A DNA stretch of 64,000 nt, taken from NCBI RefSeq assembly GCF_044647545.1, contig NZ_CP172818.1; one strand, 5' to 3'. A model generated the notes under the pieces. That model made no database searches, was not told the DNA's origin, and saw only the letters and a list, made by a program, of their open reading frames with translations. The DNA comes from Escherichia coli (lineage in GTDB: Bacteria; Pseudomonadota; Gammaproteobacteria; Enterobacterales; Enterobacteriaceae). Positions 408 through 426 of the stretch are shown here, one piece after another (within the stretch, counting starts at the first letter, position 1; every line of letters begins with the position of its first letter). The position numbers and the translations under genes were made by a program.

Positions 408-426
408 AAAAATTGTTAACAATTTT
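408..426. promoter_or_regulatory. Near-perfect palindrome aaaattgttaacaatttt in lpdA promoter region; candidate operator
   Basis: Read directly: 18-19 nt AT-rich inverted repeat about 90 nt upstream of lpdA start; binding factor not assigned. Confidence 0.4.

Follow-up and report, generated by a model that had tools for sequence, protein, structure and literature searches.

The perfect palindrome in the Escherichia coli lpdA promoter lies at the centre of the ArcA-P operator and is probably a by-product of its direct repeats

Results and discussion

The aceF-lpdA junction and the lpdA promoter

The stretch of E. coli DNA analysed here (64 kb; the window) begins within the 3' end of aceF and runs through the internal lpdA promoter into lpdA, with the following features at the junction.

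1-310, + strand: last part of aceF (E2 of pyruvate dehydrogenase), ending in a stop codon at 308-310, from the open reading frame list and the RefSeq annotation of near-identical E. coli records
313-342, + strand: intrinsic-terminator-like hairpin of aceF with a T run, AAAAGAGCCGGCC / GGCCGGCTTTTTT, a GC-rich inverted repeat
405-410, + strand: -35 hexamer of the lpdA promoter, TTTAAA, from a promoter scan with a 17-nt spacer, in agreement with the published transcription start site
409-426, no strand: dyad, a perfect 18-nt palindrome AAAATTGTT|AACAATTTT, centred between 417 and 418 (-31 to -14)
428-433, + strand: -10 hexamer, TAAAAT, from the promoter scan, with T428, A429 and T433 constant throughout 78 loci (see below)
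440, + strand: lpdA transcription start site, equivalent to K-12 position 127717 and derived from the published site position
517-1941, + strand: lpdA coding sequence (dihydrolipoyl dehydrogenase, 474 aa, start MSTEIKTQ), from the open reading frame list and RefSeq annotation

With a 351-nt query covering the aceF/lpdA junction, 5424 of 5426 complete E. coli genomes gave a match, at 95-100% identity and with aceF and lpdA annotated. The stem at 313-342 gives a terminator-like match on the opposite strand as well. The start site at 440 follows from two literature statements, namely that the ArcA site at K-12 127679-127711 corresponds to -38 to -6 (Park et al., 2013; PMC3798270) and that the lpd promoter lies 195 nt before the lpd ATG (Olvera et al., 2009), which in K-12 is at 127912; both lead to K-12 127717, that is, position 440 of the window, and the dyad therefore spans -31 to -14. 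Upstream of this start lies a sigma-70 promoter, TTTAAA - 17 bp - TAAAAT, with 9 of 12 matches, and the dyad is essentially its spacer, between the -35 and -10 hexamers. A sigma-70 ChIP peak has been mapped to 127733 ('lpd'), with a signal of 1199 aerobically versus 153 anaerobically, so that occupancy is about 8-fold lower under anaerobic conditions (Myers et al., 2013).

A first-pass annotation of the window, made from the sequence alone, had described a near-perfect palindrome at 408-426 in the aceF-lpdA intergenic promoter region. The location is confirmed, with aceF ending at 310, lpdA starting at 517 and the dyad in the lpdA promoter, and the palindrome is there; its extent, however, is 409-426, position 408 being an extra A, and it is perfect, not near-perfect. 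The 18-mer, AAAATTGTTAACAATTTT, consists of two arms of 9 nt with 100% complementarity and zero spacer, and is unique in the 64-kb window even when two mismatches are allowed. Its statistical weight is moderate. One 18-nt palindrome per 64-kb window is unremarkable, because, when the 64 kb were shuffled as a whole with dinucleotides preserved, 55 of 200 shuffles contained an arm of at least 9 nt; when only the 171-nt intergenic stretch was shuffled, an arm length of 9 was reached in 5 of 5000 cases. The window holds a second perfect 18-nt palindrome, CAAATCACGCGTGATTTG at 36913-36930, which is coding, within an 824-aa open reading frame (34582-37056, + strand), and chance can account for one or two in 64 kb.

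The palindrome lies within the ArcA-P operator

The whole dyad is contained in a 33-mer that is the published ArcA-P operator of the lpdA promoter and that is built of three direct repeats (DR1 to DR3).

402-434, + strand: ArcA-P operator of the lpdA promoter, TTGTTTAAAAATTGTTAACAATTTTGTAAAATA (-38 to -6), identical to K-12 127679-127711
402-411, + strand: DR1, ArcA direct repeat TTGTTTAAAA; 9.4 bits here, 9.4 bits published
413-422, no strand: DR2, ArcA direct repeat and palindromic decamer TTGTTAACAA; 11.8 bits on either strand, 11.7 bits published
425-434, + strand: DR3, ArcA direct repeat TTGTAAAATA, overlapping the -10 hexamer; 10.7 bits here, 10.7 bits published
402-419, + strand: 18-bp ArcA box (DR1 plus DR2); 21.7 bits by leave-one-out scoring, published Ri 21 bits

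This element is already known: it is a characterised, experimentally mapped ArcA operator. Park et al. (2013; PMC3798270) list lpdA in their Tables S4 and S6 as a plus-strand site of three direct repeats (9.4, 11.7 and 10.7 bits), with the 18-bp box ttgtttaaaaattgttaa at an Ri of 21 bits, and report that both ChIP-seq replicates in K-12 have an ArcA peak at lpdA, that expression of lpdA is 6.1-fold higher in an arcA mutant and that sigma-70 occupancy of the promoter falls without oxygen. Earlier binding or footprinting of ArcA-P at lpdA, in 1998, is credited to Cunningham et al. where it is cited in PMC3798270. The window is identical to K-12 over the operator stretch, and all of the binding evidence is from K-12, not from the strain of the window. 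ArcA belongs to the OmpR/PhoB family, whose tandem direct repeats are read head-to-tail (PMC3798270; PMC4173790).

We scored the window, on both strands, with an ArcA matrix built from 113 boxes, which are the 115 rows of Table S3 (of 128 boxes) minus lpdA and acnB. The segment 402-419 on the plus strand reached 21.7 bits, which is the highest score of the roughly 128,000 positions scanned and exceeds all 113 training boxes (median 15.7, maximum 21.3). With the same leave-one-out matrix the known acnB box at 4067-4084 was recovered as a positive control, at 16.7 bits, and the repeats scored one by one gave 9.4, 11.8 and 10.7 bits, in agreement with the published figures. The site thus has the make-up of an ArcA box, a pair of 10-bp direct repeats, each with a TGTTA core, whose centres are 11 bp apart and whose score is in the range of sites bound in vivo, and it carries a further repeat in helical phase, as in the published Table S4: DR3 scores 10.7 bits at 12 bp from DR2, versus -3.0 in an 11-bp register. 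The operator overlaps the core promoter (-35 at 405-410, -10 at 428-433, start site at 440), which is consistent with repression.

The acnB promoter deserves a remark of its own. Its ArcA box, ATGTTGCTTTTTTGTAAA (4067-4084, + strand, 16.7 bits), is followed 5 bp on by a convergent candidate box, ATTTTGACGATGTGTTAA (4089-4106, - strand, 13.0 bits), so that opposed ArcA-like boxes are found at a further promoter of the window besides that of lpdA.

Conservation across Enterobacterales

A search with LpdA yielded 80 loci from different Enterobacterales species, of which 79 could be evaluated, the upstream sequence of one (L005) being too short. Loci were registered by an anchor pattern that fixes columns 416-420, 423 and 426-429 and that 78 of the 79 match; in the exception (L053) the site is present with one T-to-C change. 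The site is kept in ungapped register in all 79 loci, and the G/T cores of the repeats and the promoter hexamers are conserved across the orthologous promoters. In 78 loci there is no variation in TTAAC (416-420) or TGTA (426-429), which are columns of the anchor pattern, and TTAAC is found in L053 too. Conservation in related species, which the first-pass annotation had named as a check on the dyad, went against it, since the dyad is intact in only 24 of the 79 loci, whereas the ArcA site is kept in all. An inverted-repeat operator is expected to have dyad symmetry, which is perfect here (9 + 9), and to have arms that are kept together or compensated, which is not what the 79 loci display: the breaks are one-sided, systematic compensatory change was found at no mirror pair, and the sole complementary double change (pair 410/425, G-C) occurs in one locus whose dyad is already broken further in.

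On the basis of columns 408-412 the promoters were split into two types. Type A (n = 41) has the form TTGTTT[C/A]AAAATTGTTAACAATTTTGTAAA and is found in Escherichia, Salmonella, Citrobacter, Klebsiella, Enterobacter, Kluyvera, Kosakonia, Pectobacterium, Rahnella, Buttiauxella and others. In all 41, G404, G415 and G427 are invariant and the plus-strand box scores 17.4-21.4 bits; the dyad measures 20 nt in 19 loci and 18 nt in 5, and has its arms cut to 3-5 nt in the remaining 17, by the one-sided changes A412T (n = 7), A421G (n = 7), A422T (n = 2) and T413A (n = 1). Where the dyad is broken in this way the ArcA box still scores 19.8-20.6 bits, apart from L018 (17.4 bits), in which DR1 is changed too; the dyad-breaking changes fall at positions that the matrix tolerates and leave the score unaffected. 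Type B (n = 38), with the form ..GTTTGCAGnTTATTAACAATTCTGTAAACT and arms of just 2-5 nt, comprises Erwinia, Pantoea, Tatumella, Serratia, Yersinia, Hafnia and Edwardsiella. Both types share TTAACAATTyTGTAAA and differ upstream, where type A has CGTTTGTTGTTTCAAAATTG and type B GGTTTGCAGTTTA (loci L003-L082, columns equivalent to window 396-434). Rahnella and Ewingella, of the family Yersiniaceae, and Pectobacterium are of type A, and Yersinia and Serratia are of type B, so the split does not run cleanly along family boundaries.

Within E. coli, 5162 of 5424 genomes show an identity of 99% or more over the 61 nt at 385-445, and in 5316 of 5426 the exact matches within 403-432 cover 28 or more of the 30 nt; the one natural variant that we examined, A412G, affects the left arm only. 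As judged from the aligned promoters, the pattern of conservation is the one that would be expected for a tandem-repeat operator together with promoter hexamers, and not for a site read as a dyad.

A probable by-product of the repeat architecture

We conclude, at a probability of roughly 0.88, that the dyad is the central part of the ArcA-P operator overlapping the sigma-70 lpdA promoter and that the palindrome is a by-product of the repeat architecture. The literature and the scoring reported here establish the occupancy by ArcA, the ArcA-dependent repression, the position relative to the start site, the matrix score and the conservation of the repeat cores. The comparative data, moreover, make it look as though the symmetry itself is not what is recognised. 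The first-pass annotation had proposed the dyad as a candidate operator of a dimeric regulator, in a promoter under redox control. The dyad does lie in the core of the operator of a regulator that acts as a dimer, ArcA-P, and the promoter is indeed under redox control; dyad symmetry as the recognition feature is not supported, however, since ArcA reads tandem direct repeats and the two arms are not maintained together in the 79 orthologous promoters.

The mechanism begins with a reduced quinone pool, during anaerobic or microaerobic growth, upon which ArcB phosphorylates ArcA. ArcA-P then binds to the tandem repeats DR1 (402-411), DR2 (413-422) and DR3 (425-434) as a head-to-tail pair of DNA-binding domains, with further repeats being filled cooperatively. 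By covering -38 to -6 it occludes both hexamers and the spacer, excluding RNA polymerase and lowering sigma-70 binding, and the outcome is anaerobic repression of the lpdA-only transcript.

Why such an operator should be palindromic can be traced to its parts. The palindrome arises because the core of the ArcA half-site, GTTAAC, is self-complementary and has A/T-rich flanks. The middle repeat is the full consensus TTGTTAAC followed by AA, and the resulting decamer, TTGTTAACAA, is therefore identical on both strands, at 11.8 bits each; the spacers between the repeats are, by coincidence, mirror images as well, with AAAA to the left and TTTT to the right. The frequencies in the ArcA columns give a joint probability of about 1e-4 per site for the nine mirror pairs, only 25-fold over uniform, and in none of the 114 other ArcA boxes does DR1 extend to TGTTAACA. 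Given this low probability, the full 18-nt symmetry is best seen as a single lucky ancestral state that was then inherited. Two observations run counter to this account: the dyad persists across many genera of Enterobacteriaceae (the loci with 20 and 18 nt described above), and its right arm, TTAACAATT, is more conserved than the average ArcA spacer.

Alternative readings of the palindrome

One consequence of the dyad is a high-scoring box in the opposite orientation.

416-433, - strand: ATTTTACAAAATTGTTAA, a candidate ArcA box that mirrors the plus-strand one and results from the dyad; 19.5 bits, a score exceeded in the window only by that of 402-419; putatively used by ArcA

The symmetry could then be functional for ArcA itself, with convergent, overlapping boxes (plus strand 402-419, minus strand 416-433) sharing the half-site TTGTTAACAA, and ArcA-P dimers might load either way, or the orientation used might differ by lineage. 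Besides the rank of the minus-strand box and the equal score of the central decamer on both strands, the type-B promoters are consistent with this proposal. In these 38 loci the plus-strand box is lost (median 1.3 bits), whereas the minus-strand box, which in Yersinia, Serratia and Erwinia is AGTTTACAGAATTGTTAA, has a median of 15.1 bits, close to that of real sites (15.8); no locus departs from C420, which supplies the G of the minus-strand half-site, while G415 is kept in only 10 of the 38, so that the most deeply conserved part of the dyad is the right arm, on the opposite strand. However, the minus-strand box has a weak upstream repeat (E. coli, 7.1 bits; type B, 2.8 bits), from which the key G is missing when it is read in the 11-bp register, the published model of three strong plus-strand repeats already accounts for the E. 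coli site, and the two boxes overlap, which makes joint occupancy impossible. We therefore regard convergent boxes as conceivable but doubtful. An evolutionary version of the idea, which we consider unlikely, is that the minus-strand box at 416-433 (spacer plus -10) is common to all of the Enterobacterales examined and that the strong plus-strand box at 402-419 (-35) was added or retained only in promoters of the Enterobacteriaceae/Pectobacterium/Rahnella type; ArcA-P would bind in either orientation, and the operator would have been flipped in evolution without moving.

The comparison with ArcA, FNR, PdhR and Fis sites that the first-pass annotation had suggested singled out ArcA, with FNR and PdhR at background and the Fis match off-centre and non-specific. 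A separate, symmetric homodimeric regulator sharing the promoter with ArcA (FNR, CRP, PdhR, Fur or another) would explain a perfect inverted repeat of 18 nt, or 20 nt in many genera, centred in the promoter spacer, a symmetry improbable from the ArcA columns alone, and the half-sites AATTGTT/AACAATT do resemble the PdhR half-sites AATTGGT/ACCAATT. Yet the arms are neither co-conserved nor compensated, and the consensus matches over the dyad are poor, and for each of them between 276 and 3066 other sites in the window do as well or better: 4 of 10 positions are mismatched in the best match to the FNR consensus TTGATnnnnATCAA (3066 sites equal or better) and also to that of CRP, which is background, 5 of 12 to the PdhR box ATTGGTnnnACCAAT, with a half-site spacing of 0 instead of 3 bp, and 8 of 19 to the Fur consensus, again background; a scan over the dyad with the IHF consensus stayed at background level too. 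The FNR ChIP-seq list passes from 121981 (aroP/pdhR) to 142603, with no peak at lpdA and none between pdhR and can/yadG, and a 2023 paper states, in a passage citing Cunningham et al., that PdhR does not bind to the lpd promoter in E. coli and that the same was shown in Plesiomonas. Among the full-text literature matches to TTGTTAACAA, mostly primers and viral sequences, no listed title or abstract assigns a bacterial regulator to it. All this makes a second regulator of this kind very improbable. Fis has one point in its favour in GTTTAAAAATTGTTA at 404-418, over the -35 region, with a single mismatch to the degenerate 15-bp motif GNNYAWWWWWTRNNC, and another in a 2024 study that places lpdA in the direct regulons of Fis, CRP and ArcA, as derived from databases; the motif has 94 equally good matches in the window, though, and the 15-mer is centred on 411 as opposed to 417.5 for the dyad, so that the symmetry would be left unexplained, and we take an overlapping Fis site to be highly unlikely. 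Cross-regulation of lpdA by PhoP, also of the OmpR/PhoB family, would use TGTTTA-AAAAT-TGTTAA (403-419, over the -35 region), which matches 11 of the 12 specified bases of the PhoP box (T/G)GTTTA-N5-(T/G)GTTTA, and the lpdA sequence is among 38 in-silico PhoP-box candidates in Shigella flexneri. It is outside both the candidates that were assayed by EMSA in that study and its 11 verified PhoP targets, the first repeat is TGTTTC in most other genera, and PhoP also reads direct repeats and hence offers no explanation of the dyad; a double role as a PhoP box would appear most improbable. Finally, a role in nucleic-acid structure, as a hairpin in the pdhR-aceEF-lpdA read-through mRNA or as a DNA cruciform, strikes us as scarcely credible. 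The region is transcribed only in the read-through mRNA, where an AU-rich hairpin is possible (-8 kcal/mol for 396-440), but the dyad is upstream of the lpdA start site and mirror changes that preserve pairing were not seen in the aligned loci. The RNA hairpin was rejected on the fold of 396-440, which is no better than that of shuffled sequences (z = -1.44; 19 of 200 shuffles fold as well), and on a search of Rfam, in which no family reached its gathering threshold in the region and all weak matches were driven by the hairpin at 313-342.

Relation to known operators

With the dyad read as part of a tandem-repeat ArcA-P operator, its closest relatives are the icdA P1-type operators of TCA-cycle promoters (Park et al., 2013; Park & Kiley, 2014), which like that of lpdA have three 10-bp repeats with a TGTTA core and centres spaced 11-12 bp apart, and which likewise overlap a sigma-70 core promoter and bring about anaerobic repression. 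The lpdA operator differs in that its repeats are all strong (9.4, 11.7 and 10.7 bits versus 11.2, 4.9 and 3.0 in icdA) and in that its middle repeat is a perfect palindromic decamer, which gives rise to the 18-nt dyad and the high-scoring mirror box; we found no discussion of this feature in the sections of these two ArcA papers that we searched. The PhoB and PhoP boxes, like the lpdA site, consist of direct repeats that follow one another at about one helical turn and are recognised head-to-tail by winged-helix domains, but binding and regulation at lpdA are documented experimentally for ArcA only, PhoP being a pattern match. The PdhR box ATTGGTnnnACCAAT of the upstream pdh promoter in the same operon is also symmetric and AT-rich, with similar half-site letters (AATTGGT versus AATTGTT), but differs from the lpdA dyad in the half-site spacing (3 bp versus 0) and in 5 of its 12 specified bases. 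FNR- and CRP-type sites share dyad symmetry in a redox- or carbon-controlled promoter, but the lpdA dyad does not match their consensus, and the FNR ChIP-seq peak is at pdhR (121981), not at lpdA.

In physiological terms the operator coordinates the supply of lipoamide dehydrogenase with the TCA cycle under oxygen limitation, and in this respect our analysis adds little beyond confirmation. The site does provide a worked example of a perfect promoter palindrome that need not be read as a palindrome, in which comparative data separate the two readings. Moreover, of the two boxes it is the mirror-image one that is conserved more widely across Enterobacterales, and this could inform the modelling of ArcA site orientation.

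The lpdA 5' untranslated region

The 5' untranslated region of lpdA is polymorphic. The window has a short form of about 77 nt (start site at 440 to the ATG at 517), whereas that of K-12 is 195 nt and carries about 120 extra nt (L001:434-562 versus window 456-485). The insert is a dispersed repeat, present at a median of 5 and up to 9 places per genome, and 3422 of 5426 complete E. coli genomes contain a full-length copy at 99% identity or more; its core, CCCCAGGAGCTTACATAAGTAAGTGACTGGGGTGAG, resembles an ERIC/IRU element. Two blocks of the leader, CGnCCCGGTGGA (451-457, just past the start site) and CCGCCGGA (488-494, some 20 nt ahead of the ribosome-binding site), have a conserved sequence in 41 short-form Enterobacterales loci, and the stretch between them, in which the K-12 insert is located, is highly variable, at 25-60 nt. 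The blocks can pair as a 7-bp stem, each position of which is paired in 38-41 of the 41 loci; genuine double compensation is confined to one locus, and folding of the single sequence gave no significant result (z = -1.33). Going by the alignment, 451-457 and 488-494 constitute a conserved bracket around the variable stretch.
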